In this document: piece by piece, positions 12,831 through 59,551 of the stretch
Numbering within the stretch: position 1 is the first letter of the stretch
Layout of the letters: the number at the start of each line of letters is the position of its first letter
Assembly (NCBI GenBank): GCA_043797545.1
Contig: JAZDPN010000064.1
Coordinates: forward strand, 1-61,605
Source: Patescibacteria group bacterium
Lineage (GTDB): Bacteria > Patescibacteriota > Gracilibacteria > JAHISY01
DNA: 61,605 nt
Reading direction: 5' to 3'
Notes under the pieces: generated by a model
Seen by the model: only the letters and a program-made list of their open reading frames with translations
The model's database searches: none
Told to the model about the DNA's origin: nothing
Made by a program: the position numbers and the translations under genes

Positions 12831-13517
12831 TTATTCAAATACTTTCCACCACTCGCGCAATTCAGCAACAGTCAACTGCCCCGGCGCAGTCGCGTTTTTT
12901 TTGTCGAGCGGCGCGAACATACCAAGTCCGCCGATCAGCGGCGTAATCACGCGCGTCGGCTCGCCCGGCTCGCCCATCGCCATCGTGAGAAAACCTTTTT
13001 TCTTTTTCGCGAGCTCCCACGAGATTTGGAAAATCGGCGAGCAGTCGTCAAAAGTTTTCGCGGTCGCAACAATTTTCACAACTTCGGCTTTTAATTTCGC
13101 AGCTTTTTCCGCGATTTGGCGCAGTTTTTCGATCTTCGGCATTTTGGCGAAATCGTGAAACGAGAGAATCAATTTCGCGCCGGCGGAATTTTTTTGGAAT
13201 TGGCGAATCAGTGCGACGGGCGTGTCGAGCGCGAGATCGACGAAACTCGCACCGGATCGCGCCGCGCTCGTCAAAAGTTCGACACGTTTTTTGTCGCCGA
13301 AACGACAAACGCCGTTTTCTTTTTTTGTTTTCAAATTGACGATCACGGGTTTTTTCGCCGCCTGGAGAATTTTTTGAATTTTAGATTCGTCCAAACTTTT
13401 TACTTTGTCGAGCCAAACTTCGATCAAATCCGCCTGATCCTGCGAGTCGAGAATTTGGCGCTCGAAATCCGCGACCGAAATCGGCCGCAACGGAACGATA
13501 ATTTTGGGATTCAACAT
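12831..13517 (-). CDS. aroD: type I 3-dehydroquinate dehydratase
   Basis: 228 aa with the AroD type-I pattern (DLIEVWLD, ILSFHDF, KIVATAKTFDD, MAMGEPG). Confidence 0.88.
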   Translation of the reverse strand: MLNPKIIVPLRPISVADFERQILDSQDQADLIEVWLDKVKSLDESKIQKILQAAKKPVIVNLKTKKENGVCRFGDKKRVELLTSAARSGASFVDLALDTPVALIRQFQKNSAGAKLILSFHDFAKMPKIEKLRQIAEKAAKLKAEVVKIVATAKTFDDCSPIFQISWELAKKKKGFLTMAMGEPGEPTRVITPLIGGLGMFAPLDKKNATAPGQLTVAELREWWKVFE

Positions 13518-14713
13518 TTGCGAATCAAGGTGAATTGAGGCAAATCGTGATTAATTTCGAGCCAAACTTTGGCTTTTTGACCGCCGTGTGCCGCGGAAAT
13601 TTCAGTGAATTTTTCGTCGAAAATTTTACTGATTTCCAATTTTTTTAGCGAGTCGTACGGCGGGACAGCTTCGATTTTATCACCTTTCTGAAGCCGATTT
13701 TTCGGCGTGAGTAAAATTTTTCCGCGGGAACTTTTTTCGACCAGCCCGAGAAAATTTTGCGGATTTTCACTCCCCGACCGTTCGAAATTTTGGAGATTTT
13801 GGAGCGAACCGTCGAAAAATCCGAGCGTGAAATCACGATTGCCAGTCGTCAGAATTTCGTGCCACAAATTTCGGTCGAACTTTTTTCCCGCAGCGAAATC
13901 ATCGAGCGCTTGTCGATACGCGCGAACGATCGTCGCGAGATAGCCGAGCGATTTATTGCGACCTTCGATTTTGAACGAACAAATCCCCGCGCGCGTGAGC
14001 TGCGGAATTTTTTCGAGCAAACAGAGGTCGCGCGAATTCAAAATATAACTGCCTGCGGAATCTTCTTCGAGTGGAAAAAATTCGCCCGGGCGTTTTTCCT
14101 CGACGAGGGAATACGACCAGCGACACGGTTGCGCGCACTGCCCGCGATTCGCGTCGCGTTCAGTCAAAAAATTCGAGAGCAGACAACGCCCGGAGTACGA
14201 CATGCAAATCGCGCCGTGGACAAAAACTTCGAATTCCATTTTCGGATTCGCCGCGACGATTTTTTTAATTTCCGCGAAGGAAAGTTCCCGCGCGAGAATC
14301 ACCCGCGACACGCCGAGCTTTTTCCACTCCCCGACCGTCAGCGAATTGACGGAATTCGCCTGCACGGAAAGATGTTTCGCGACTTTCGGAAAAAATTTCC
14401 GCAGAACGGCGAGCACACCGAGGTCGGAAAAAATGAACGCGTCGGGCGGAGTTTTTTTCAATTTCGCGAGAAAATTCTCCAATTTTTTGAACTCATGATC
14501 GCGCGGAAAAGTGTTCGTCGTGAGGTAAATTTTCTTTTTCGCAGCACGACAAATCGCGATCGCTTTTTGGATCTGTGGAACGCCGAATTTGTTTTCACCG
14601 ACGCGCAGCGAAAAATCAGGTGTGCCGAGATACACCGCGTCCGCACCGAAGGCGAGCGCGACGCGCAATTTTTCGAGATCGCCCGCGGGCGCGAGCAGTT
14701 CGGGCAATTTCAT
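13511..14713 (-). CDS. peptidase U32 family protein
   Basis: MKLPELLAPAGDLEKLRVALAFGADAVYLG is a typical U32 N-terminus and the Cys-containing core is present. Overlaps the aroD start by 7 nt. Confidence 0.88.
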   Translation of the reverse strand: MKLPELLAPAGDLEKLRVALAFGADAVYLGTPDFSLRVGENKFGVPQIQKAIAICRAAKKKIYLTTNTFPRDHEFKKLENFLAKLKKTPPDAFIFSDLGVLAVLRKFFPKVAKHLSVQANSVNSLTVGEWKKLGVSRVILARELSFAEIKKIVAANPKMEFEVFVHGAICMSYSGRCLLSNFLTERDANRGQCAQPCRWSYSLVEEKRPGEFFPLEEDSAGSYILNSRDLCLLEKIPQLTRAGICSFKIEGRNKSLGYLATIVRAYRQALDDFAAGKKFDRNLWHEILTTGNRDFTLGFFDGSLQNLQNFERSGSENPQNFLGLVEKSSRGKILLTPKNRLQKGDKIEAVPPYDSLKKLEISKIFDEKFTEISAAHGGQKAKVWLEINHDLPQFTLIRKC

Positions 14714-29555: not shown

Positions 29556-30368
29556 TTATTTTTTAAGAAAGTCGAAAATCTTATTGGCACTTTCGGTCCG
29601 ACCGAGCGGCATGATATGCACTCCAGCTAGACGATCTCGCAGCTTTGTCAGAAGCTCAATCGCCAAATCAGCACCGCAATTTTCATCCTTTTCTAGGCGT
29701 GCCAAAACGGATTTGGGAATCGAGACACCGTGCACTTTCGAATTGAAATACTCCGCAACCTTCAAGCTCTTGAGCGGCATGATGCCAAGCAGGACCGGAA
29801 TTTTGATACCGGCTTTCTGAACTGCCGTGAGAAATTTTTCAGCCGTTGCGACATCGAAAACTGGTTGCGTTTGGACGAATTGCGCGCCGGCCGCTTCCTT
29901 TTCTTTCAAATATTCGATCTGTCCTGCGACATTCGGATTAGCGGCGACTGCTATTTTCAAGTCAGTTGGCGATTTAGTCGGCTTACCGAGAAATTCACCC
30001 TGATTCAAATCGCGAATCAAACTGACCAAACCAGGCGCACGAATTTCGAAAACATTTTTTGCGCCAGCATCGCCTGAGAGCGCGAGAATTCCCGTCAAAC
30101 CAAGATTGCCAGCCGCCAAAATTTTTTGGGCCAAGCCGAGCCGGGTCGAGTCGCGGCAAGTCAAATGCGCGATGGCTGGAGTCTGGGTCGCCTCTTGAAC
30201 TCGGAAAGCCAAAGTAATCGGATCGATTGTCAATCGGCCCAAAATTCCATCTGGGATATTGAAAGCATCCGCCCGCAAACTTTTAGCCTCTTCAGTGACT
30301 TTCGTAAGATCGGTTCCCGCCAAAGAACTTAGCTCAACCGTAACCGGAAAATTCCTTAAATCCAGCAT
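29556..30368 (-). CDS. metF: methylenetetrahydrofolate reductase
   Basis: 270 aa. Contains AIAHLTCRDS and a TIM-barrel MTHFR pattern (IPVLLGIMPL, FVQTQPVFD). Confidence 0.85.
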   Translation of the reverse strand: MLDLRNFPVTVELSSLAGTDLTKVTEEAKSLRADAFNIPDGILGRLTIDPITLAFRVQEATQTPAIAHLTCRDSTRLGLAQKILAAGNLGLTGILALSGDAGAKNVFEIRAPGLVSLIRDLNQGEFLGKPTKSPTDLKIAVAANPNVAGQIEYLKEKEAAGAQFVQTQPVFDVATAEKFLTAVQKAGIKIPVLLGIMPLKSLKVAEYFNSKVHGVSIPKSVLARLEKDENCGADLAIELLTKLRDRLAGVHIMPLGRTESANKIFDFLKK

Positions 30369-31516: not shown

Positions 31517-32056
31517 TTACCAAAAAGTTTTTTTGAGGCCGAGGAAATAAGCCGACAAATTGACCAAAGGATTCGCGATCGAAGCAAAAAGCAGTAAAAA
31601 TAGACTCGCGCGCCATTCCCAATTAATTAAAAAATTGGTAAAAACTAAAAATCCCAAAATGTAATCAATCTGGTCAAGCGGTAAGAATGGTCGTCCGGGA
31701 GCAATACGCCAAAGCCTTTTGAGAAAACTGCCCGCCAAATCTCCGACCAAAGCACCCAGTCCGGCCAGCGCGCCGAAAAGCAAAAATTGCCCAAGATGCT
31801 CCAAGAGACCAGTCGAGTAGATTTGGTACTTTTGAAAACAAAACTGGAGCGCGCCAATTAGCGCGCCACCAAGCGTCCCGGCCAATAGGCCGCGCCAAGA
31901 CTTGTTTTGGCCGAAAATCTCGCGACCCAGAAATTTTTTACCGCAATCAACTGGCCGCGCCAAAACCGGGCAAAAATTAATTTTCGTCGCCAAGACTGGC
32001 AACATATTGGCCACAAAAGCCGGGAGTGCGAGATACAAAATCGCAAAATAGCTCAT
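31517..32056 (-). CDS. CarS-like (CDP-archaeol synthase family, DUF46) integral membrane cytidylyltransferase
   Basis: 179 aa. LPAFVANMLPV, GQNKSWRGLLAG, GDLAGSFLKR and GRPFLPLDQIDYILG match my recollection of the CarS family blocks. Confidence 0.75.
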   Translation of the reverse strand: MSYFAILYLALPAFVANMLPVLATKINFCPVLARPVDCGKKFLGREIFGQNKSWRGLLAGTLGGALIGALQFCFQKYQIYSTGLLEHLGQFLLFGALAGLGALVGDLAGSFLKRLWRIAPGRPFLPLDQIDYILGFLVFTNFLINWEWRASLFLLLFASIANPLVNLSAYFLGLKKTFW

Positions 32057-34056: not shown

Positions 34057-35094
34057 GTGAAAAAATCCATTCTTGAAAAAATCGATTTTGTGTCCGGTGG
34101 CGGGCGCTTCGCAATCGCAATCGCCCGGGTCGTCGCGCTGAACAATCCCGAACTCGCCGTCCAGATTTTGCTGCGTTATCCAGAGTACGTCGAAGCAGCA
34201 CAAAAAGGAAATTTCGATCATTTTTTCCCAGGAATTCGTCAAAATGTAGAAATCCCGAGGAATCTTTTTTTCTCGACGAACAAAGATTTCGCGAATATCG
34301 ATCCGGAGACGCTGAAATATTTTTTTATGGCCTATCCCGCACAAGACACTCCAGAAGCTTTGCAAAATCTCAAAGCGATGAATTTGCCCGCGCTGCTGAA
34401 TTGTCTTTTTCTCAGCGGGACGAAAGGCATCGTGATCAAAACTCGCCAATTGATGAGTCAGCTTTTGAAAGAAAAACTTCCGGGTTCATCAGAAAAAATC
34501 GCGGTTATGGTCGGACCGAATATCGCGGCCGATATTTTCGAAGGTGCCCCGGTCGTGAGTACGATCGCCGGTCCGCCCGCGACGACCGGAGAATTCGCGA
34601 AACTTTTTGCCGGGTCACCGATTTTGCGAGCGCACGAATCAGAGGAAATTTTAGGACTCGATTTTGCCGGAGTGATTAAAAATATTCATTCGATCGCGTT
34701 CGGAATCGCGCTCACATTCGGCCTACACGCATCTACTGTCGGAACAATTATGCAAGGTGCATTGCGAGAATTGGACAGCTTCGTCGCGGGATTCGGGTGC
34801 GATCGAAGCGCGGTATCGATCGGAATGAGCGGCGATTATCAACTCGCACTGTCCGGCGCGACTCGCAACGCGAAAGCTGGAATTGAATTCGCGCAAACTG
34901 GCAAACTGCCGGAAAATTATTTGGTCGAAGGCGTATTTTCACTCCCAATCATTCTCGAGCTGGCCCGCGAAAAAAATATTCGAATGCCGATCGTCGAAAT
35001 GCTCAACGAAGTTTTGAATAACGGGGTCAAACCGCAAAAAGCGCTCGAAGAATTAATTCGTTTTGGTCGCGATACCTACCGACTAAATTCATAA
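34057..35094 (+). CDS. gpsA: NAD(P)H-dependent glycerol-3-phosphate dehydrogenase-like protein
   Basis: GpsA layout (MVGPNIAADI, AGVIKNIHSIAFGIA, C-terminal helical domain). The N-terminal dinucleotide motif is degenerate. Divergent from pgsA. Confidence 0.75.
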   Translation: MKKSILEKIDFVSGGGRFAIAIARVVALNNPELAVQILLRYPEYVEAAQKGNFDHFFPGIRQNVEIPRNLFFSTNKDFANIDPETLKYFFMAYPAQDTPEALQNLKAMNLPALLNCLFLSGTKGIVIKTRQLMSQLLKEKLPGSSEKIAVMVGPNIAADIFEGAPVVSTIAGPPATTGEFAKLFAGSPILRAHESEEILGLDFAGVIKNIHSIAFGIALTFGLHASTVGTIMQGALRELDSFVAGFGCDRSAVSIGMSGDYQLALSGATRNAKAGIEFAQTGKLPENYLVEGVFSLPIILELAREKNIRMPIVEMLNEVLNNGVKPQKALEELIRFGRDTYRLNS

Positions 35095-36273
35095 TTTCTT
35101 GAAATTCGCGCGAATGAATTTCGTCGCTTTGGCCGGCTCATAAATTCCGTCTTTTTCGAAAGTCACGATTTTTTCGTCGTACAAAGTTTTCGGCGCTTCG
35201 CGACCGAGAATCTGGACATTGCCTTTGTAAAGTCCGAGCCGCACTTTGCCCGTCACTTTTTGACGCAATTTGTCGATCTGTTTCGCGAGCGCGATGCGAC
35301 GCTTCGAATACCAAAAACCGTTGTACACGAGCTCGGCATATTCCGCGGAAATGCGATCGCGCGCGTGCAGCTCGTCTTTCGGGACGGTCAAACTCTCGAC
35401 GGCGCGCAGCGCGGTGAAAAGAATCGTCCCGCCCGGCGTCTCGTACACTCCCCGACTCTTCATCCCGATGAAGCGATTTTCAACCAAATCAACTCGGCCA
35501 ATTCCGTTTTCTCCGCCGAGTTCGTTCAGTTTTTTGAAAATGTCGAGCGCGGGCATTTTTTGACCGTTCAATTTTGTCGGCACGCCTTTTTCGAGCTCGA
35601 GCTCGATCTCGGTCGTGCGGTCCGGCGCGCGCTGCGGCGAAACCGTCAATTCGAACATTTCCTCCGGCGGCGTGAGATTCGGATTTTCGAGAATCCCCGC
35701 CTCGTACGAAATGTGCAGTAAATTTTCATCCGAACTCCACGGCTTCGATTTCGACGCTTTGATCGGCAGTCCGTGCTTCGCGGCGTAATCAATCATCAAA
35801 TTGCGGCCGCCGAGTTTTTTGTAAAACTCCGGCTCGCGCCACGGAATGTACGGTTTCAATTTCGGTGCAAGCGCGTGGTAGGTCAATTCGAAACGCACCT
35901 GGTCGTTGCCTTTGCCCGTCGCGCCGTGCGAAAGAAATTGCGCGCCTTCTTTTTTCGCGACTTCGACCTGTGCTTTCGCGATCAAAGGTCGCGCGACTGA
36001 AGTCCCGAGCAAATAGTAATTTTCGTATTTCGCGGCCGACCATTGTAAAGGCAGGATGAAATCACGGAGAAATTCCTGCTGCAAATCGAGACAGACGAAT
36101 TTCGTAATTCCGGTCTTTTTCGCCCGCTCGCGAATCACATCAAGGTCTTCGACTTTTTGGCCGAGGTCAGCGAGACAGCCAATCACTTCGAAACCTTTTT
36201 GGATGAGGAAGTGGGCAATCACGGTCGTATCGAGACCCCCCGAATAGGCCAGCACCATTTTTTTATTAGGCAT
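35089..36273 (-). CDS. argG: argininosuccinate synthase
   Basis: MVLAYSGGLDTTV, HGATGKGNDQVRFE and ENRFIGMKSRGVYETPGG are typical of ArgG. Confidence 0.95.
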   Translation of the reverse strand: MPNKKMVLAYSGGLDTTVIAHFLIQKGFEVIGCLADLGQKVEDLDVIRERAKKTGITKFVCLDLQQEFLRDFILPLQWSAAKYENYYLLGTSVARPLIAKAQVEVAKKEGAQFLSHGATGKGNDQVRFELTYHALAPKLKPYIPWREPEFYKKLGGRNLMIDYAAKHGLPIKASKSKPWSSDENLLHISYEAGILENPNLTPPEEMFELTVSPQRAPDRTTEIELELEKGVPTKLNGQKMPALDIFKKLNELGGENGIGRVDLVENRFIGMKSRGVYETPGGTILFTALRAVESLTVPKDELHARDRISAEYAELVYNGFWYSKRRIALAKQIDKLRQKVTGKVRLGLYKGNVQILGREAPKTLYDEKIVTFEKDGIYEPAKATKFIRANFKKL

Positions 36274-36283
36274 TTGAAAAAAA

Positions 36284-36478
36284 TTAAATTGATAATTGAG
36301 TCAAAAAATAAGCTGAGATTGCAATTAGGGCGATGGAAACAATTATAAAAATCCAGGCAATAACCCTGATGCGCGGAGAAATATAGGAATAGCTAAAAGC
36401 ATGGTGCACCGCAAAACCAGCAAAAATCAGAAAGGCGGTTAGCAGCAGTCCGTAAAGAATATAGATTGCGGTTTGCAC
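36284..36478 (-). CDS. small 2-TM membrane protein (64 aa)
   Basis: Two clear hydrophobic helices. GTG start 7 nt after a TGCTAAAAT element. Lies 10 nt upstream of argG. Confidence 0.5.
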   Translation of the reverse strand: MQTAIYILYGLLLTAFLIFAGFAVHHAFSYSYISPRIRVIAWIFIIVSIALIAISAYFLTQLSI

Positions 36479-37922: not shown

Positions 37923-40163
37923 TTGATGCTGCAAACTTTTTACCGTTCACACTCGTGCAATGATTTGACCGAGAAAAATCTCGACGAAAAAATCAAACTC
38001 GTCGGCTGGGTCGATCGCCGCCGCGATCACGGCGGACTGATTTTCATCGACTTGCGCGACCGCTACGGCATCACGCAAATCGTGACTGACCCGGAGATTT
38101 CCGGCGCGGCGCACAAAACTTTTGAGAAAGTGCGTCCGGAATGGGTTTTGCAAATCGAAGGCAAAGTCCGCGCGCGTCCGGCCGGTCAGGAAAACGCAAG
38201 GATGGCGACGGGAAAAATTGAAATTTTGGTTTCGGGTGTGAAAGTTTTGAACGAAGCCGAGACTCCGCCTTTCGAGATTGCCGAGGAAAATGATGAAAAC
38301 GAAGAAATTCGGCTGAAATATCGTTATCTTGATCTACGCCGAAAACGCTTACAAAAAAATATCGTTCTTCGCCACAAGCTACTTCAGGCGACGCGGAAAT
38401 ATTTTTACGAGCAAAATTTCGTCGAGATCGAAACGCCGATTCTCATCAAAGGGACGCCGGAGGGCGCGCGCGAATATCTCGTCCCGAGTCGCGTGCATCC
38501 GGGAAAATTTTATGTGCTACCGCAGTCGCCGCAGCAGCTGAAACAGCTATCGATGGTCGCGGGTTTCGATCGCTACATGCAGATCGCGCGCTGTTTTCGC
38601 GACGAAGATCAACGCGGCGATCGCCAGCCGGAGTTCACGCAAATGGATTTGGAAATGAGTTTTGTGAATTCGGATGATGTGATGGATGTGAATGAAAAGG
38701 CTCTAATCTCGGTAACGCAAGAGTGTCGGCCGGACGCGCAATTGAAGTTCGCGAAATTTCCGCGACTTTCTTTCGACGACGCGATGAATAAGTACGGAAG
38801 CGACAAACCGGATTTGCGTTACGAACTCGAAATCGTCGATATCACCGCAGAAACGCGCGGCTGCGGTTTCGGGATTTTCGCGAATGCGGCAGTCGTGAAA
38901 GTTTTGAAAGTTCCCGGCGGCGCGAAATTCAGTCGGAAAGATATCGAGGAATTGACCGATGCAGCGAAAATTTACGGCGCGAAAGGACTCGCGTGGATCA
39001 AGGTCGCGGAAAAATTCGAGGGCGTGCCGGTCGAAAAATTGGGTCAAGATTTGACGAAAAAGATTGCCGAAAAATGCGGCGCGGTGAAAGAAGACATTTT
39101 GCTTTTCGCGGCGGATGAATGGGAAACCGTTTGCACTTCGCTCGGCGCAGTGCGCATCGAGTCGGCGAAAAAATTGGGCTTGCTCGACGGCAAAGAAAAC
39201 GAATTCGCATTTTGCTGGATTACCGATTTCCCGATGTTTGCGAAAGATGCGGAAACTGGCGAGCTCGCGTCGATGCATCACCCCTTCACCCGTCCGAAAA
39301 ATCCGGCGGATCTCGACAGCGATCCGCTGAAAGCGAAAGCTGAGGCGTACGATGTCGTGCTGAACGGCTACGAAATCGGCGGCGGCTCGGTGCGGATTCA
39401 CGAGCGCGATCTACAAAAAAAGATTTTCGACATTTTGAAAATCTCGGACGAAGATGCCGAGCGTCGTTTCGGACACATTTTGAAAGCGTTCAGCTTCGGC
39501 GCGCCGCCGCACGGAGGGATCGCGTGGGGGCTCGATCGCATTGCGATGCTTTTCGCCGGCGAACCGAACATTCGCGAGGTGATCGCCTTCCCGAAGACAA
39601 ACAAAGCCGAGGATCTCATGCTGTCCGCGCCGGATGTCCTGCCCGCGGCGCAGCTCGCGGAGGCAAATATTCGCTCAACCGCGGATGGGAAAAAATCGAA
39701 ACGCGACATTTTCGCGGAGATCGTCGAGCTTTTGAATTCGCGCAAAATTAAATTTGAAAAACTCGAACACGCCGCGGTCAAAACTTCGGCGGAGGCGGCG
39801 AAAGTCCGCGGGACGACGCTCGAACAAGCTGCCCGCGCGCTCGTTTGGAAAACTGAAAACGGCTTTATTCAAAGTGTTTGCTCGGCGGCGCGAGAAGTCG
39901 ACGAGGCGCAATTGAAAAAAGTCGCGGGCGTGCAGAAACTCGAGCTCGCAAAACCGGAGGAGGTGAAAAAAATCACCGGCTGCGAGATCGGCTGTGTCCC
40001 GCCGTTCGGGAATATTTTCGATTTACCAGTTTTCGTCGACAAGTCGCTTGAGTCGGAAAAGATAATCGTCTTCAATGCCGGCGAGCACACGAAGTCGATC
40101 AAAATGCCGTTCGCCGATTATTTGAAAATCATCGGTGGGAAGACGAGTGAGTTTGCGAAATAA
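37923..40163 (+). CDS. aspS: aspartyl-tRNA synthetase fused to a C-terminal YbaK/ProX-type aminoacyl-tRNA deacylase domain
   Basis: Bacterial-type AspRS (OB fold, motif 2 FRDEDQRGDRQPEFTQMDLEMSF, GAD insertion, motif 3 GGIAWGLDRIAMLF) ends near aa 590. An extra 153 aa follow, with a YbaK-like pattern (..LEHAAVKTSAEAA...GCEIGCVPPFG..VFVD..L...IVFNAGE). Confidence 0.9.
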   Translation: MMLQTFYRSHSCNDLTEKNLDEKIKLVGWVDRRRDHGGLIFIDLRDRYGITQIVTDPEISGAAHKTFEKVRPEWVLQIEGKVRARPAGQENARMATGKIEILVSGVKVLNEAETPPFEIAEENDENEEIRLKYRYLDLRRKRLQKNIVLRHKLLQATRKYFYEQNFVEIETPILIKGTPEGAREYLVPSRVHPGKFYVLPQSPQQLKQLSMVAGFDRYMQIARCFRDEDQRGDRQPEFTQMDLEMSFVNSDDVMDVNEKALISVTQECRPDAQLKFAKFPRLSFDDAMNKYGSDKPDLRYELEIVDITAETRGCGFGIFANAAVVKVLKVPGGAKFSRKDIEELTDAAKIYGAKGLAWIKVAEKFEGVPVEKLGQDLTKKIAEKCGAVKEDILLFAADEWETVCTSLGAVRIESAKKLGLLDGKENEFAFCWITDFPMFAKDAETGELASMHHPFTRPKNPADLDSDPLKAKAEAYDVVLNGYEIGGGSVRIHERDLQKKIFDILKISDEDAERRFGHILKAFSFGAPPHGGIAWGLDRIAMLFAGEPNIREVIAFPKTNKAEDLMLSAPDVLPAAQLAEANIRSTADGKKSKRDIFAEIVELLNSRKIKFEKLEHAAVKTSAEAAKVRGTTLEQAARALVWKTENGFIQSVCSAAREVDEAQLKKVAGVQKLELAKPEEVKKITGCEIGCVPPFGNIFDLPVFVDKSLESEKIIVFNAGEHTKSIKMPFADYLKIIGGKTSEFAK

Positions 40164-53868: not shown

Positions 53869-54684
53869 GTGAAGCTATCTATCATCATTCTCGACTTCGA
53901 AAAATCGACGCGCGTACTCGCAAATGTCGCCGCGCTTTTGGCACAAAAAACAGATTTTGATTTTGAAATCATCGTCGCGGTAAACGCTGCAAATGAAGCC
54001 AAAAAAGCGAAATTCGCTGGACTTGTGAATGAACCGAAAATCAAATTTATTTTCAACGCGGAGAATCTCGGCTACCCGCGCGGAATCAATTCCGCGGTGC
54101 AAAAATCGAGCGGTGAAATTCTCGCGATCGTGAATCCGGATTTGATTTGTCCCGACGAAAATTCGCTCGCGAAACTCGTCGCGAAGATCGAGTCAGACGC
54201 GAAAATCGGGGTGCTCGCACCGCGACAAATTCGTGAAACGGACGGCCAAACCGAAATGACCGCGCGTGCTTTCCCGCAGCTTTTGAATCAAATTGCGCGG
54301 CGAACTTGGCTGCGCAAAATTCCCGGAATCCGTGAGCGCGTCGCACATGATGAAATGCAACATCTCGATCTGGCGCGCGAACAACAGGTCGACTGGTTGC
54401 AGTCGAGCTTTTGGATTGTGCGAAGAAATTTTTGGGACGAGCTCGGCGGACTCGACGAACGCTTTTTTCTTTTTATGTCCGATCCGGATTTTTGTCGCCG
54501 CGTCTGGGATGCTGGAAAAATAGTGCTTTTTTGGCCTGAAGTCATCGTCCGCGCGGACGGACTGCGCGCAAGCGCGGGCGGATTTTTGGCGTTTTTCAAA
54601 AAGTGGACGCTGCGTCAACATCTCCGCGACGCGCTGAAATATTTTGGGAAATGGCGCGGAAAGAAAAATCCACGCGATCAGTAA
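53869..54684 (+). CDS. family 2 glycosyltransferase
   Basis: LSIIILDFEKS...EIIVAVNAANE...GYPRGINSAVQKSSGEILAIVNPDL is a GT-A fold. GTG start. Confidence 0.8.
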   Translation: MKLSIIILDFEKSTRVLANVAALLAQKTDFDFEIIVAVNAANEAKKAKFAGLVNEPKIKFIFNAENLGYPRGINSAVQKSSGEILAIVNPDLICPDENSLAKLVAKIESDAKIGVLAPRQIRETDGQTEMTARAFPQLLNQIARRTWLRKIPGIRERVAHDEMQHLDLAREQQVDWLQSSFWIVRRNFWDELGGLDERFFLFMSDPDFCRRVWDAGKIVLFWPEVIVRADGLRASAGGFLAFFKKWTLRQHLRDALKYFGKWRGKKNPRDQ

Positions 54685-57035
54685 AACTCGGGCAGAAGTT
54701 TCGCCGGGTGAATTTCGGGAATTTTCTCGAGCGTCGGCAGATCGCTGATCTTGATTTTGCCCAAATATAGTTTTTTGAGATCGCCGCCGTCCGCGACAAA
54801 TTTTTGGATTTTTTGCAGCCCGGAAAAATAAATCGCGTCTTTCGTGAAGCCGCCCGGTCCGGCAGTCGCAGTCAAACCGCGTTTCACTTTCACCGCAGTT
54901 TTCCACGCGCGCTCGTCGTCGAAACCGTATTTTTTGACCAGCGCGAAAATTTGGGAAAAAGATTTTTCGGCGGCAGCAGCGACCGCGAGACAGCTCGCGA
55001 TCGGCCAGAATTCTTTTTCATGCGCGGACTGTAAAACTTTATTTTGGTTGAAAATCGCGAGTCCTTCTTCGATCTCGAGATAATTCCCCGTTCCCCGCGC
55101 GAAGATTTCGTACTTTTGCGCGCGACCGTTTTCCGTGCGGAGAATGTGCGTCTCGACCTCGTGCGCGATCGTCGCGCGCAGTCGCTCGGGCGACCACTTC
55201 GCGCCGGCACGCACGAAAAGTGTCCCCGATTTTCCAGCAAGCGCGTCGGAGACGAGATCAGTTTTCAAAACAACTTTCCAATTTTTGAGACCATATTTGG
55301 CAAAAGTTTTTTGGAATTCTTCCGCAGCGGATTTCGCGTCGAGATCGATTTTTTCGGCCGAAAATTTTTTCGGTTTCGCAGCCAAAAGTTTCTCTGCTGT
55401 CGCAATAATTTCCGGACTCGGGAAACCGTAAAGTTGGCGCGATTTCTCGGCAAAATCCGGCTTGCCGATTGATTCGAGCAGCTCGATTTTGCGCCGCATT
55501 TCCAATTTTTTGCCGCGGAAAAGTGCACCGAGCGGCGACTCTGGAATTTCGATCGCGGCGAGCTCAGCAAGTAATTTTTGCGGATCGAAGGTTAATTTTT
55601 TGTAATGAAAAACTGGATCATAATTTTTGAGCGCGGAAAACTTTTTCTTTTCGGCCAGCAGATTGATCGGCTTGAGAAAATGCAAAAGCCGAATTTTTTT
55701 GTCGAGCACGACGAGCTTCCGATCAAGCACGGCGAAATCGACCGGCCGTGCGGTCGGCTTTTTTTCTTTCGGCAAAATCGGTTCCTCTTTCGCGACCGGG
55801 TTGATAAGGAAATTGCTGAGGTCGCGCCGCCCGAGAATGATTTTGTAATTCGCGTCCGACAAATCGGTTTTTTCGGCGACAGTCGTGAGTCGCTCGTCCG
55901 CGAGGATGATTTTGAGATGGACATTTTTCGAATTTTTTTCGACCGGCGCGAGCTGCAATTTTTCGGCGAGCTCGGCGTCAATCGCGGTCGTCGCGTGCGT
56001 CGGATCGAGCTCGACTTTCACCCGGTGGATCGTATTATCTTTGAGCAAAATCTCGGCCGGTTCGATGAAATCAACAACTGTTTTTTTCGGATATTTTTTC
56101 TTTTTCTGCGTTTTGCCGAAAAGCTCTTTGCCGAGTTTTACGCCTTTTTCCGGCGAATCGACTTTGAGTCCGCGAACTCTTTCTAATCTTTTTTTGAGCG
56201 GCGCGAGATTCGCGATCTGGACCATCAAACCCGCGCGCGCATTCACTTCGAGTAATAATGGTCCGTCTTTTTGATCGACAACAAGATCCGCTGCAAGATA
56301 GCCGAGGTTCGTGTGCAACTGCGCCGCGCTCGCGATTTTGAGAATTTCGTCGAAGTCCGGAATGAGATGTCCAGCGGTCGGAATCCCGCCCGGCAGCTCG
56401 TCGAGCAATTGATTGAAACGGACGGCGTGCGTAGTTTTGCCCGAAGCGAGATCGATCCCGAGTCCGATCCCGCCGAGATGGACATTCGCTTTCCCGCCCG
56501 ACTCGGGCGTCGGCACACGCAACATCGCCATCACCGGAATGAGATTGTGAACGATGACGCGCACGTCCGGCAAACCTTCGACTGCGAGTCCGGAAATGAA
56601 TTCGATCGAATCGACGCGACTTTCGAAAAACGCAATGTCGGGCAAACTCGCGATCGAAAATTCGCCGTCGAGAATGTCTTCGATGTGCTCGCGCAACTCC
56701 GCCTCGGTCAATTTCCCACCGCCGACTTTTTGCCAGACGCCGTCAAGAATTTTTTCCTTCACGACGACAATTCCCTCCCCGCCAAATCCGGCATTCGGTT
56801 TCAAAACGAACGAATCGGGCAAAATTTCAAAATCGAACCTGTCGAATTCTTCGCGATTGCGAATCGTGGCAATCAGCCTAGGGACGGGCACGCCGCGGGT
56901 CGAGAGAAATTGTTTGGTCGACAATTTTGAGTCAGCCATTTTGATCGCCTTTTTACGATTAAAAGGCCGCAAATATTCCAAATTGCGGGAATTAATCCCG
57001 AGGATCCCGTGATTTTTGAAAAACGGAAAAACCAT
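54678..57035 (-). CDS. fusion protein: RimK-type ATP-grasp ligase + DUF785/RimB-like domain + DUF1704 (MATCAP-like, HExxxH) domain
   Basis: aa 1-295: GILGINSRNLEYL, KPNAGFGGEGI, LLEVNARAG. aa ~320-435: ...YKIILGRRDLSNFLINP. aa ~450-785: IAHEVETHILRTENG, EIEEGLAIFNQ, LYLGKI. The start overlaps the leuD stop (TAATG). Confidence 0.85.
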   Translation of the reverse strand: MVFPFFKNHGILGINSRNLEYLRPFNRKKAIKMADSKLSTKQFLSTRGVPVPRLIATIRNREEFDRFDFEILPDSFVLKPNAGFGGEGIVVVKEKILDGVWQKVGGGKLTEAELREHIEDILDGEFSIASLPDIAFFESRVDSIEFISGLAVEGLPDVRVIVHNLIPVMAMLRVPTPESGGKANVHLGGIGLGIDLASGKTTHAVRFNQLLDELPGGIPTAGHLIPDFDEILKIASAAQLHTNLGYLAADLVVDQKDGPLLLEVNARAGLMVQIANLAPLKKRLERVRGLKVDSPEKGVKLGKELFGKTQKKKKYPKKTVVDFIEPAEILLKDNTIHRVKVELDPTHATTAIDAELAEKLQLAPVEKNSKNVHLKIILADERLTTVAEKTDLSDANYKIILGRRDLSNFLINPVAKEEPILPKEKKPTARPVDFAVLDRKLVVLDKKIRLLHFLKPINLLAEKKKFSALKNYDPVFHYKKLTFDPQKLLAELAAIEIPESPLGALFRGKKLEMRRKIELLESIGKPDFAEKSRQLYGFPSPEIIATAEKLLAAKPKKFSAEKIDLDAKSAAEEFQKTFAKYGLKNWKVVLKTDLVSDALAGKSGTLFVRAGAKWSPERLRATIAHEVETHILRTENGRAQKYEIFARGTGNYLEIEEGLAIFNQNKVLQSAHEKEFWPIASCLAVAAAAEKSFSQIFALVKKYGFDDERAWKTAVKVKRGLTATAGPGGFTKDAIYFSGLQKIQKFVADGGDLKKLYLGKIKISDLPTLEKIPEIHPAKLLPEFY

Positions 57036-57514
57036 TAAATTTGATTCAAAAGACCACCCGCCAAAACAATTTTTTGCAAAAATTCTGGCAACGGCTCAAG
57101 CGCAAATTCAGTTTTTTGGGTCAAATTTTTAATTTTCGAATTGGTTAAATCAATCTCGATCGCGTCATTTTCGGCAAATTTTGCGGTCGCGTTTTCGAGG
57201 ACGAAAGTCGGCAAACCAAAATTGACCGAGTTGCGGAAAAAAATCCGCGCGAACGAATCAGCTACAACGGCACGGACACCCGCACCGACGAGCGCCCAAA
57301 CTGCGTGCTCGCGGGAACTTCCGCAACCGAAATTTTGACCCGCAATCACAATCGGATTTTGGGCCGATTTTAATTTTTCTCCCCCAATCGCCTCGAGAGC
57401 ATGAGCCGCCAATTCGGTCTGATCTGAGCTGGTCAGATAGCAAGCCGGAATAATCAAGTCGGTATCGATATCGTCCCGGGCAAAAATTTGCGCCGAGCCA
57501 GAGATGTTTTTCAT
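57035..57514 (-). CDS. leuD: 3-isopropylmalate dehydratase small subunit (archaeal-type LeuD, 159 aa)
   Basis: DDIDTDLIIPACYL, IVIAGQNFGCGSSREHAVWAL, ADSFARIFFRNSVNFGLP. No leuC is adjacent. Confidence 0.88.
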   Translation of the reverse strand: MKNISGSAQIFARDDIDTDLIIPACYLTSSDQTELAAHALEAIGGEKLKSAQNPIVIAGQNFGCGSSREHAVWALVGAGVRAVVADSFARIFFRNSVNFGLPTFVLENATAKFAENDAIEIDLTNSKIKNLTQKTEFALEPLPEFLQKIVLAGGLLNQI

Positions 57515-57520
57515 AAGGGC

Positions 57521-57529
57521 ATTTTAGCA
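57521..57529 (-). promoter_or_regulatory. extended -10 (TGCTAAAAT) 6 nt before the leuD ATG (leaderless geometry)
   Basis: Minus strand reads TTTGCTAAAAT-GCCCTT-ATG. Confidence 0.55.
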
Positions 57530-57548
57530 AAAAGCTTGAATAATTGAT

Positions 57549-57577
57549 TTGCTCGGCTGAAAAAAGTCATTTAAAAT
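57549..57577 (+). promoter_or_regulatory. promoter TTGCTC-N17-TAAAAT for small membrane gene, leu leader and leuA
   Basis: Hexamers with 17-nt spacing, 23 nt upstream of the ATG at 57601. Confidence 0.5.
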
Positions 57578-57600
57578 TCAGACACTTTAATCCCCTCAAA

Positions 57601-57849
57601 ATGAGCACTCCATTTAAAGTCATGAAGGCGGTATACGTTTACCTTTCCGCGTTCGTTGGACTTCTCGTCGTCGCAGCTGGGCTTTATAGCATGCTTGAAT
57701 ATCTCTTAAGCATTCTTTTCATTGATTCAGCTTTTGACGCGATTTATGTGATTACTCCTATCACTCGTATTGTTGTCGGTCTCTTCATCATGGTTCCACA
57801 CTGGGCAATCGGTCACCACTTCCACACTCTCGAATCGAAAAAAAGATAA
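57601..57849 (+). CDS. small 2-TM membrane protein (82 aa)
   Basis: MSTPFKVMKAVYVYLSAFVGLLVVAAGLY... has two hydrophobic helices. ATG at M20 of the track ORF. Confidence 0.55.
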   Translation: MSTPFKVMKAVYVYLSAFVGLLVVAAGLYSMLEYLLSILFIDSAFDAIYVITPITRIVVGLFIMVPHWAIGHHFHTLESKKR

Positions 57850-57851
57850 AG

Positions 57852-57902
57852 ATGATGATTACGAAAAATCTCCTTCTCGAGCTCCTTCTCCTCACCCGCT
57901 GA
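57852..57902 (+). promoter_or_regulatory. Leu-rich leader peptide ORF (MMITKNLLLELLLLTR*) of a putative leu attenuator
   Basis: 16 codons, 7 of them Leu (CTC x5, CTT x2). Begins 2 nt after the upstream stop and lies 117 nt upstream of leuA. Confidence 0.6.
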
Positions 57903-57927
57903 GAGGCTCGATTTTGCAAATAAATTG

Positions 57928-57961
57928 AAGCCTCTCGCAACTGGGAGGCTTTTTATTTTTT
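57928..57961 (+). terminator. intrinsic terminator / attenuator hairpin upstream of leuA
   Basis: AAGCCTCTC-GCAACT-GGGAGGCTT forms a 9-bp stem followed by TTTTATTTTTT. Its 5' arm can instead pair with GAGAGGCT (57901-57908), which overlaps the leader stop codon. Confidence 0.7.
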
Positions 57962-57990
57962 CAACCGAGACAGATTAAAATAAAACCAAA

Positions 57991-58018
57991 TTTACTTCTT
58001 AATCCTTACCCCTTCCTA
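57991..58018 (+). repeat. four heptads TTTACTT-CTTAATC-CTTACCC-CTTCCTA ending at the leuA ATG
   Basis: Same family as 44225-44294. G-free. Confidence 0.65.
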
Positions 58019-59551
58019 ATGACTGAAATCGTAAAAATCTTCGACACGACATTGCGCGACGGCGAACAATGCCCCGGCGCGAGTTTGAACCACGATGAAA
58101 AACTGCAAATCGCGGCTCAGCTCGAGAAACTCGGTGTCGATGTGATCGAAGCGGGATTTCCGATCGCATCGCCCGACGATTTTCGCGCAGTGAAGGAAAT
58201 CGCGAAATTGGTCGAAAAATCGACGGTTTGCGGGCTTTCGCGCGCCATCACGAAAGATATTCAAGCGGCGGCGGACGCAATCGCGCCGGCGAAGAAAAAG
58301 CGCATTCACACTTTTCTTGCGACGAGCGACATGCACTTGAAATACAAATTGAAGATGAGCCGAACTGAGGCTCTAGAACGAATCGCCGAAATGATTAAAT
58401 TCGCGAAAAGTTTGGTGCGCGATGTGGAATTCAGTCCGGAAGATGCGAGCCGCAGCGATCCGAAATTCTTACTGAAAGCGCTCGCCGTCGCAGTCAAAAA
58501 TGGCGCGAAAACCTTGAATATTCCGGACACAGTCGGCTACGCTACACCGACAGAATTCGGGAAATTTATCAAAATGATTCGCCAAAATGTGCCGAAAGAT
58601 GTCGTGATTTCGGTGCATTGTCACGACGATCTGGGCTTGGCTGTAGCGAATTCTTTGGCGGCGGTCGAGAACGGCGCGCGGCAGGTCGAGTGCACAGTGA
58701 ACGGCATCGGCGAGCGCGCAGGCAATACGAGTCTCGAGGAAGTCGTAATGGCACTCAAAACGCGCAAAGATTTTTTCCGGAATTTGCGGACGAATATTCA
58801 GCCGAAAGAAATTTATCGGACGAGTCGGCTCGTTTCGAATTTGACTGGTTTCGTCGTCCCGCCGAACAAAGCGATCGTCGGCTCAAACGCTTTCGCGCAC
58901 GAAAGCGGCATTCACCAACACGGCATCATCGCGAAACGCGAAACTTACGAAATCATGAAAGCCGAGGATGTCGGCGTGGAGAAAAATAAATTGGTTTTGG
59001 GGAAACATTCCGGCCGGGCAGCGCTGATTCAGAGAATGGTCGAGCTCGGTTTCAAATTGACGCAAAACGAAGTCGACAAAACTTTCGAGCGCTTCAAAAT
59101 TTTGGCCGACAAAAAGAAAGAAATTTTCGACGAAGATCTCGAGGCTTTGGTTGTGAATGAAATTTCGGAAGCCGCGGCCGAATGGCATGTCGAATCGGTC
59201 GAAGTCGTAGCTGGCAATCGTCGGAAACCGACCGCCGAAATTGCTCTGCGCAATTCGCAAGGTAAGATTTTCAAAAAGAAATCTGGCGGGACTGGACCGG
59301 TCGACGCAGCGTATTCCGCGGTGAACGCGATCGTCGGCGAAAAAGTGAAATTGCTCGAATTTCGGATGGACGCGGTGAGCGAAGGCATCGACGCGCAAGC
59401 GACAGTCACGGTGAAAGTCGAAACAGAGACCGGGCGGATTTACACTGGCAAGGGTAGCCACACCGACATCGTCGTCGCGAGTGTCAAAAGTTATCTGAAT
59501 GCGCTGAATAAAATCGTCGCGGGGAAGGAGCGAATAAAAGTTATTTTGTAA
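58019..59551 (+). CDS. leuA: 2-isopropylmalate synthase
   Basis: IFDTTLRDGEQCPGASL, HCHDDLGLAVANSLAAV, and a C-terminal LeuA regulatory domain. Confidence 0.95.
   Translation: MTEIVKIFDTTLRDGEQCPGASLNHDEKLQIAAQLEKLGVDVIEAGFPIASPDDFRAVKEIAKLVEKSTVCGLSRAITKDIQAAADAIAPAKKKRIHTFLATSDMHLKYKLKMSRTEALERIAEMIKFAKSLVRDVEFSPEDASRSDPKFLLKALAVAVKNGAKTLNIPDTVGYATPTEFGKFIKMIRQNVPKDVVISVHCHDDLGLAVANSLAAVENGARQVECTVNGIGERAGNTSLEEVVMALKTRKDFFRNLRTNIQPKEIYRTSRLVSNLTGFVVPPNKAIVGSNAFAHESGIHQHGIIAKRETYEIMKAEDVGVEKNKLVLGKHSGRAALIQRMVELGFKLTQNEVDKTFERFKILADKKKEIFDEDLEALVVNEISEAAAEWHVESVEVVAGNRRKPTAEIALRNSQGKIFKKKSGGTGPVDAAYSAVNAIVGEKVKLLEFRMDAVSEGIDAQATVTVKVETETGRIYTGKGSHTDIVVASVKSYLNALNKIVAGKERIKVIL

Follow-up and report, generated by a model that had tools for sequence, protein, structure and literature searches.

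A probable leucine leader-peptide attenuator of leuA in Peribacteria-like Patescibacteria

The leuA locus and its leucine-rich leader

Contig JAZDPN010000064.1 of a Patescibacteria group bacterium (assembly GCA_043797545.1), analysed over its 61,605 nucleotides and referred to here as the window, carries leuA, the gene for 2-isopropylmalate synthase, downstream of a short leucine-rich open reading frame and a pair of competing RNA hairpins. The small open reading frame (sORF) lies 116 nt upstream of leuA and directly behind a small membrane-protein gene of the DUF5671 family, beyond which a leuD-like gene is transcribed divergently (Table 1). Sequence comparison and RNA folding indicate that the sORF and its hairpins are very probably a genuine, conserved and functional leucine leader-peptide attenuator of leuA.

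The DUF5671 gene ends in TAA (57847-57849), followed by AG and then by the leader ATG, which leaves a gap of 2 nt. The leader codons are ATG ATG ATT ACG AAA AAT CTC CTT CTC GAG CTC CTT CTC CTC ACC CGC TGA, and the start homologous to that of the relatives is probably the second ATG, at 57855. Leucine takes up seven of the 16 codons, compared with 10.9% genome-wide. A first-pass annotation of the window, made from its letters and open reading frames, had given the limits of this sORF, its distance from the membrane-protein gene and its leucine content correctly to the base. A putative promoter of the DUF5671-leader-leuA unit (57549-57577) has hexamers and spacing identical to those found in a related locus, L001 (L numbers designate loci from other genomes, see below); it was not called by a promoter scan, and its -35 hexamer matches at only three of six positions.

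The arrangement of leader and hairpins is not a product of chance. On its two strands the window has 285 sORFs that begin with ATG and are 10-25 codons long; among them the leader, counted once despite its two nested starts, is the only one with at least six leucine codons and an LLL run. When intergenic sORFs of the window with any start codon are ranked by runs of a single amino acid, it leads with seven identical residues in eight, and the runner-up has five. The motif formed by the hairpin arms, AGAGGYT-N12-42-AGCCTCT, is found a single time in the window, where 0.00 copies are expected. A check of every intergenic sORF and of the sequence in front of argG turned up no leader with a run of another amino acid in the window. 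A match to the arm motif in locus L040 falls inside a leuC coding region and was discarded as fortuitous.

A Shine-Dalgarno (SD) core between -18 and -4 precedes none of the 26 ATG-start genes, leuA included, and because no such gene carries one, its absence before the leader is no objection to the leader being translated. Many genes of the window carry a TAAAAT-like -10 box at a distance of 6-15 nt from their ATG; the gene starts considered include those at 13511-14713, 29556-30368, 31517-32056 and 57035-57514, all on the (-) strand. Together these features suggest that initiation in this genome is SD-independent and often leaderless. Genetic code 25 was considered and rejected: TGA terminates 11 of the 42 long open reading frames, intact frames extend up to 900 amino acids, and TGA is a true stop. 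The label Gracilibacteria attached to some relatives therefore does not imply code 25. 

Table 1. Features at the leuA locus of the window
Feature	Position	Strand	Basis or remark
leuD-like gene, aconitase C-terminal domain, 159 amino acids	57035-57514	(-)	divergently transcribed; context only
putative promoter of the DUF5671-leader-leuA unit (TTGCTC, 17 nt, TAAAAT)	57549-57577	(+)	by eye; inferred, low confidence
small two-helix membrane protein gene, 82 amino acids	57601-57849	(+)	Pfam DUF5671, E = 3.6e-7
leader sORF MMITKNLLLELLLLTR, 16 codons	57852-57902	(+)	sequence and orthologous sORFs in relatives
first Leu run, CTC CTT CTC	57870-57878	(+)	read from the codons
segment 1, able to pair with segment 2 (1:2 helix)	57877-57890	(+)	fold of 57852-57916; weak
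second Leu run, CTC CTT CTC CTC	57882-57893	(+)	LLLL in 7/7 lineages with an intact leader
segment 2, antiterminator 5' arm, 2-nt overlap with TGA	57901-57914	(+)	fold
segment 3, antiterminator 3' arm	57922-57936	(+)	57927-57936 doubles as terminator 5' arm
segment 4, terminator 3' arm	57943-57952	(+)	terminator scan and fold
U-tract TTTTTATTTTTT	57950-57961	(+)	sequence and terminator scan
leuA, 2-isopropylmalate synthase, 510 amino acids	58019-59551	(+)	Pfam HMGL-like, HCS_D2, LeuA_dimer; NCBI name

Competing RNA folds and the modelled effect of ribosome position

The end of the leader is built into the first of two mutually exclusive RNA structures. The segment GAGAGGCT (57901-57908) overlaps the TGA stop by 2 nt and is complementary to AGCCTCTC (57929-57936), at exactly the coordinates that had been given in the first-pass annotation. 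The antiterminator is present as that annotation had it, but is longer than was noted there: 57901-57914 pairs with 57922-57936 in a helix of 14 bp plus two closing pairs, with an energy of -20.4 kcal/mol and z = -4.9 relative to shuffled sequences. Among lineages with the leader, z for the antiterminator ranges from -3 to -6. The hairpin predicted before the T-tract was likewise recovered, a terminator scan placing it at 57927-57952 with 11 pairs, five of them G-C, and a T-rich tail (57950-57961); its energy is -14.9 kcal/mol, and the terminator with its U-tract ends 57 nt before the leuA ATG. The antiterminator places nine of its 16 pairs in the 5' arm of the terminator, so that the two folds exclude each other. 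The unconstrained minimum free energy fold of 57840-57970 is the antiterminator, not the terminator.

The earlier view that the switch uses only three RNA segments is not supported. Within the leader, 57877-57890 can pair with 57901-57911 (-13.5 kcal/mol, z = -1.4), and in L093, L097 and L098 the corresponding 1:2 helix is a clean hairpin, CCUCUC-3nt-GAGAGG. Such a pairing is present in every lineage with a leader, at -7.5 to -16.5 kcal/mol. As modelled, the architecture is the classical four-segment design, though the 1:2 helix is weak.

The consequences of translation were modelled by keeping the mRNA unpaired up to 12 nt past the first base of the A-site codon (9 and 15 nt were used as well) and reading out, from equilibrium folding, the mean base-pair probability of the terminator stem for each A-site codon. 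Folding under constraints had been proposed in the first-pass annotation, and it produced a switch. With the A site anywhere from Leu7 to Leu13 the terminator probability in the window is 0.00-0.07 at all three offsets (0.00 on the first Leu run), and from Leu14 to the stop it is 0.83-0.96; at the 12-nt offset it is 0.85 on Leu14 and 0.96 on the stop codon. L001, L093, L097 and L098 switch in the same way. When no ribosome is present, the antiterminator is the default fold in the window, L001, L093 and L094, and the 1:2 hairpin together with the terminator is the default in L097 and L098. These masking folds, together with the comparative data, strongly support the original suggestion that the position of the ribosome would select between terminator and antiterminator.

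The following sequence of events would account for these features. Transcription would begin upstream of the DUF5671 gene, and ribosomes finishing that gene would re-initiate 2 nt further on, at a leader of 15-16 codons (LLL, E, LLLL). If Leu-tRNA is plentiful, the ribosome would reach the TGA and cover segment 2 (57901-57914); with segment 2 masked, segments 3 and 4 would pair, and the terminator and its U-tract would end the transcript at about 57955-57961. If Leu-tRNA is scarce, the ribosome would stall while one of the codons Leu7 to Leu13 occupies its A site, leaving segment 2 free to pair with segment 3 (-20 kcal/mol); no terminator would form and RNA polymerase would read into leuA. The sequence elements, their mutual exclusion, their association with leuA across lineages and the thermodynamic switch under masking are established here; from them we infer that the sORF is translated, that termination takes place in vivo and that the response is specific to leucine. 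The element is probably a ribosome-mediated leader-peptide attenuator that would make leuA transcription respond to charged tRNA-Leu.

Leaders before leuA in related genomes

Related loci were gathered in three ways, by LeuA in species-representative genomes, by alignment of the membrane protein in metagenomes and by exact look-ups of LeuA homologues, and were read as stretches of +/-2.5-4 kb rather than as whole genomes. Leucine-rich sORFs were sought by scanning up to 400 nt upstream of leuA at 86 loci, and later loci were read directly. Close LeuA homologues are labelled Candidatus Peribacteraceae or Candidatus Gracilibacteria, and NCBI taxonomy places Peribacteraceae within Candidatus Peregrinibacteriota; to describe the genome as belonging to the Candidate Phyla Radiation (CPR) type, as the first-pass annotation had done, was therefore reasonable. 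Eight lineages, the window included and all of them uncultured, have the leader, seven of them intact and one decayed, over a range of LeuA identity from 66 to 100% (Table 2). The order leader, antiterminator, terminator with U-tract, leuA is the same in all eight.

Table 2. Lineages with a leader upstream of leuA
Lineage	LeuA identity	Leader
window	100%	MMITKNLLLELLLLTR
L001/L084	86%	MITPKFFLELLLLGF
L089/L090	82%	MTFQNLFLESLPKI, decayed
L097	72%	MTRTNLLLDLLLLSARG
L094	71%	MQKKLLLLELLLLRVRG
L088/L093	71%	MTTIKTLLVNLLLLSPRG
L095/L096	68%	MQHNSLLLSLLLLR
L098	66%	MLTIRTLLADLLLLSPRG

The leader is found in two kinds of surroundings. Its start is coupled to the DUF5671 stop in four lineages: the two codons are 2 nt apart in the window and L094, and overlap as ATGA in L001/L084 and L089. 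Elsewhere the upstream gene is a different one or is separated from the leader: L093 and L098 have a separate terminator for the preceding gene and an AT-rich, promoter-like stretch 5' of the leader, an AhpC-type gene lies 440 nt upstream in L097, and in L095 the gene before the leader belongs to an ion-transport family. These four leaders are free-standing, and the element therefore travels with leuA and not with the membrane-protein gene. By eye, each of the four has a TAnnnT hexamer 9-10 nt before its ATG, and a sigma-70 scan called a promoter only in L095 (TTGGCA, 18 nt, TAAAAT, with an upstream TG). This spacing suggests near-leaderless initiation of the free-standing leaders.

No leader was found by scan or direct reading in L002-L005, L081-L083, L085, L091, L092, L099-L103 and L008. 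The same holds for about 70 loci with LeuA identity of 60% or less, except for a few sORFs in unrelated phyla. One of these leucine-rich frames upstream of leuA encodes MLRTLPMAWTLLLLTLLRGEA in L063 (3711-3776), and another, in L064 (259-348, a Campylobacteraceae metagenome-assembled genome), encodes a peptide ending in NSLLLLQL; both may be independent leucine leaders. In a neighbour-joining tree of LeuA, leaders occupy several deep branches within one clade. The leader is probably ancestral and has been lost repeatedly; on the sequences at hand, the simplest history would have an ancestral leader, at least three losses and one decay under way.

Comparison of the leaders reveals a small set of rules. 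The peptide consists of four to six variable residues, two to four leucines, one or two spacers, LLLL, one to four variable residues and the stop. It is 14-18 codons long, and all eight lineages preserve the ATG, the frame and, at the antiterminator arm, a stop codon in that frame. The LLLL run differs only synonymously (CTC/CTT/CTA/CTG) in seven lineages, and the residues that flank it vary radically (TR, GF, RVRG, SPRG, SARG, R). Segment 2 follows the last leucine codon at a distance of 4-7 nt in the six intact lineages with GAGAGG-type arms, of 7-8 nt in L095 and of 10 nt in L089, the decayed copy. TGA, TAG and TAA all serve as the stop codon, whose position ranges from 1 nt before the first base of the arm to about 8 nt into it; the stop of L095 is located about 5 nt 5' of the antiterminator arm.

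L095 and L089 differ from the other lineages, each in its own way. The leader region of L095 cannot be aligned by sequence with the others, and its arms are unrelated in sequence: the antiterminator is formed by ACGGGAUGAG/CUCGUCCCG at -16 kcal/mol, and the terminator, UCCCGAUCAAUCGGGA followed by U7, has -9.8 kcal/mol and is called by the terminator scan. Segment 2 of L095 pairs with the CUG CUC CUC CUC codons of the same leader, a lineage-specific version of the 1:2 pairing, and despite the different arms the architecture is that of the other lineages. L089 (2393-2492) retains three leucines in MTFQNLFLESLPKI; with a weakened antiterminator (-12.3 kcal/mol, z = -2.1), it folds into the terminator wherever the ribosome is placed in the model. 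Joint decay of codons and structure is what would be expected if both parts act as one unit. A TAAAAT box 6 nt before the leuA ATG of L089 may have taken over leuA transcription.

The DUF5671 gene, recognisable by a PHWAIGHHFH motif, adjoins leuA across the clade (window 57601-57849; L001-L004, L081-L095, L103), often with leuD divergent beyond it. That this gene itself serves as a long leader in the leaderless relatives was rejected as a general mechanism, since a competing helix occurs only in L081 (2747-2800) and L085 (1134-1185). There, 12 nt after the DUF5671 stop (CGAAUUUGAGAA/G) pair with the 5' arm and loop of the terminator, with one compensatory change between the two loci, and the predicted pairing may be a vestigial antiterminator. 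The remaining leaderless loci show such pairing weakly or not at all, and their terminator probability is 0.78-0.96 at every ribosome position modelled.

Alternative readings, known systems and implications

Three other explanations of the locus have to be weighed. The hairpin could be a plain intrinsic terminator of the DUF5671 gene, the sORF and the upstream complement being fortuitous and leuA being transcribed from a promoter of its own. Nine related loci have just such a terminator at the same place after the DUF5671 gene and no leucine sORF (terminator probability 0.33-0.96, with seven loci at about 0.95), and in many lineages a -10-like TTTAAAAT lies between terminator and leuA. The first-pass annotation had itself raised the possibility that the hairpin acts only for the membrane-protein gene. 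This is partly true, inasmuch as the hairpin is the sole terminator after that gene in the window, but the word only is unlikely to hold, because in L093, L095, L097 and L098 sORF, antiterminator and terminator form a free-standing unit directly before leuA. An accidental sORF is also hard to reconcile with its uniqueness among 285 in the window, with the z values of -3 to -6 for the antiterminator and with the loss of leucine codons that accompanies the loss of the antiterminator in L089, and this explanation is improbable.

Real alternative hairpins could also be set by a factor acting in trans, an RNA-binding protein or an uncharged tRNA on the CU-rich tract, along the lines suggested for the actinobacterial LEU element, with the reading frame incidental. 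Since CUN repeats are read as leucine in one frame, a CU-rich binding or pairing tract would mimic a leucine run, and the arms are nearly invariant in seven lineages; in the Streptomyces leuA leader, moreover, mutations of leucine codons did not act as classical attenuation predicts (PMC1262725). Against such a factor stands the conservation, in the eight lineages, of the ATG, the frame, the length (14-18 codons) and a stop in frame at the arm, all kept despite differing flanks and the use of three stop codons. L095 retains leucine codons although its arms are unrelated. The element matches neither the T-box nor any other Rfam family, and unlike the actinobacterial LEU element discussed below it shows no pairing with the leuA ribosome-binding site, the terminator lying 57 nt before a leuA that has no SD. 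Control in trans is distinctly improbable. It is highly improbable that the sORF encodes a functional hydrophobic micropeptide, for instance a membrane partner of the DUF5671 protein, with the hairpins as ordinary operon punctuation. The core of the peptide is hydrophobic, and its start is coupled to the DUF5671 gene in the window, L094, L001/L084 and L089; yet the leucines alone are conserved while the flanks change radically, 14-18 residues are too short for a membrane span once the charged ends are counted, and in L095 and L097 the leader goes with leuA where no DUF5671 gene precedes it.

Several observations nevertheless weigh against an attenuator, in addition to the hairpin's likely role behind the DUF5671 gene. 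The recurrence of sORF and hairpins in relatives, which the first-pass annotation had proposed to look for, was found in seven further lineages but not throughout: about half of the clade is leaderless (L002-L005, L081-L083, L085, L091, L092, L103). The outer antiterminator arms GAGAGGCU/AGCCUCUC are nearly invariant in seven of eight sequences, which makes formal covariation sparse; RNAalifold on MAFFT alignments gave no compensatory pairs in these arms and two in the terminator. The structural argument is instead drawn from L095, from one-sided changes of G-C to G-U and from inner helices that differ among lineages. The 1:2 helices are not significantly stabler than shuffled sequence, with z only -0.6 to -2.2. 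The leucine codons of the leader are common ones, CTC making up 28% and CTT 13% of all leucine codons. In the masking model the switch of L095 is shallow, from 0.1 to 0.8, and in L094 the terminator is favoured already from codon 9, because the equilibrium model undervalues the antiterminator, the structure that is transcribed first. Finally, a -10-like TTAAAAT (57974-57980) stands between terminator and leuA and has counterparts 3' of the terminator in most relatives; to judge from its sequence, this box of the window could be a second promoter bypassing the attenuator.

One leucine attenuator that the element closely resembles in design is leuL of the enterobacteria (Rfam Leu_leader RF00512), where a short open reading frame with a run of four leucine codons, alternative hairpins and a U-tract precede leuA. 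There, four pairing segments are used and the position of the ribosome chooses the fold, which is classical leu attenuation. The window element shares with it the reading frame with a leucine run, the antiterminator and terminator, the U-tract and the position before leuA, and as folded it would have four segments as well. It differs in showing no sequence or covariance-model similarity, in a peptide of 14-18 residues with two leucine runs (28 residues in leuL), in having no SD, in its common CUC/CUU codons and, for the window lineage, in a start coupled to the protein gene that precedes it. The likeness to leuL drawn in the first-pass annotation holds for the switch; the element appears, however, to be a four-segment design rather than a three-segment rebuild of leuL. 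The Lactococcus leu/phe leader (RF01743) and Phe_leader (RF01859) are leader-peptide attenuators of the same general kind, and RF01743 gives no match at the window element.

More generally, Rfam searches at the gathering threshold returned no match in the window or in seven related loci, RF00512, RF01743 and the T-box family RF00230 included. With the threshold relaxed to E = 10 on 57400-58100 only chance-level matches appeared; that to Phe_leader (E = 1.3, 19.6 bits against a gathering score of 55) is driven by the terminator alone. Two further systems place leucine codons before leucine genes. The Staphylococcus aureus ilv-leu operon is reported to have a Leu-rich attenuator peptide that controls the branched-chain amino-acid biosynthesis genes; it belongs to another phylum, governs the whole ilv-leu operon and acts together with CodY (PMC5794164), whereas here leuA alone is concerned. 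Rfam searches detected no sequence relationship between the two. The actinobacterial LEU element has an upstream reading frame with a leucine run directly before leuA (Seliverstov et al. 2005, PMC1262725), and in this respect the present element is alike. The LEU element, however, is a pseudoknot whose base stem joins the leucine codons to the leuA SD; it lacks an obvious terminator and was considered unlikely to work by classical attenuation (PMC1262725). Here a clear terminator and U-tract end 57 nt before leuA without contact to the start region. Identity with the LEU element was rejected, given the terminator and the lack of an SD before leuA or any of the 26 genes.

A search of the open-access full-text literature found no paper on leader-peptide attenuation in Patescibacteria, CPR or Peregrinibacteria, which agrees with the remark in the first-pass annotation that none is described for CPR-type genomes, though it is no proof of absence. 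By its sequence, the element is a family new to Rfam in a new phylum-level group, with a mechanism that is already known.

Other genes of the window deserve brief mention. The leuD-like gene shares one base with a gene for a 785-residue fusion of an ATP-grasp domain and a MATCAP-type peptidase (together 54678-57514 on the (-) strand), and the same leuD and ATP-grasp/MATCAP neighbourhood is found in L091 and L094. Neither leuC nor leuB is present in the 61-kb window. Directly upstream of argG (35089-36273) lies an open reading frame of 64 amino acids with two predicted transmembrane helices (36284-36478, (-) strand), the second small membrane frame before an amino-acid biosynthesis gene; no arginine-rich leader is found there. 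The aspartyl-tRNA synthetase (37923-40163, (+) strand) has a C-terminal YbaK-type editing domain (Pfam tRNA_edit, E = 2.4e-29), a fusion that looked unusual. A gene resembling CDP-archaeol synthase (31517-32056, (-) strand; Pfam CarS-like, E = 7e-30) occurs in this bacterial genome.

A more elaborate and unlikely extension of the attenuator concerns the lineages in which the leader adjoins the DUF5671 gene (window, L001/L084, L089, L094). The leader there would have no initiation signal of its own and would be translated only by ribosomes terminating on the DUF5671 gene, so that read-through into leuA would integrate translation of the membrane protein with the charging of Leu-tRNA; the DUF5671 gene, adjacent to leuA throughout the clade, might itself be linked to leucine, for example through export, uptake or sensing. 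Under such coupling, the weak pairing seen in L081 and L085 would represent either what is left of this arrangement or a less refined version of it.

CPR bacteria, or Patescibacteria, are usually described as host-dependent, with reduced genomes and few biosynthetic pathways, and to our knowledge almost no gene regulation has been characterised in them. The value of a leucine attenuator in this group is taxonomic and physiological, the mechanism itself being a textbook one that brings no new concept. If the attenuator is real, a cis-regulatory RNA family that Rfam lacks would be added, and transcription and translation would have to be coupled tightly enough for attenuation in a genome without SD sequences, where initiation is apparently leaderless or coupled. 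Some Peribacteria-like lineages would keep leuA and tune it to the charging of their own tRNA-Leu, which would mean that leucine synthesis is sometimes needed in them and sometimes not. The patchy distribution of the leader could then mark those lineages that gave up regulated leucine synthesis.

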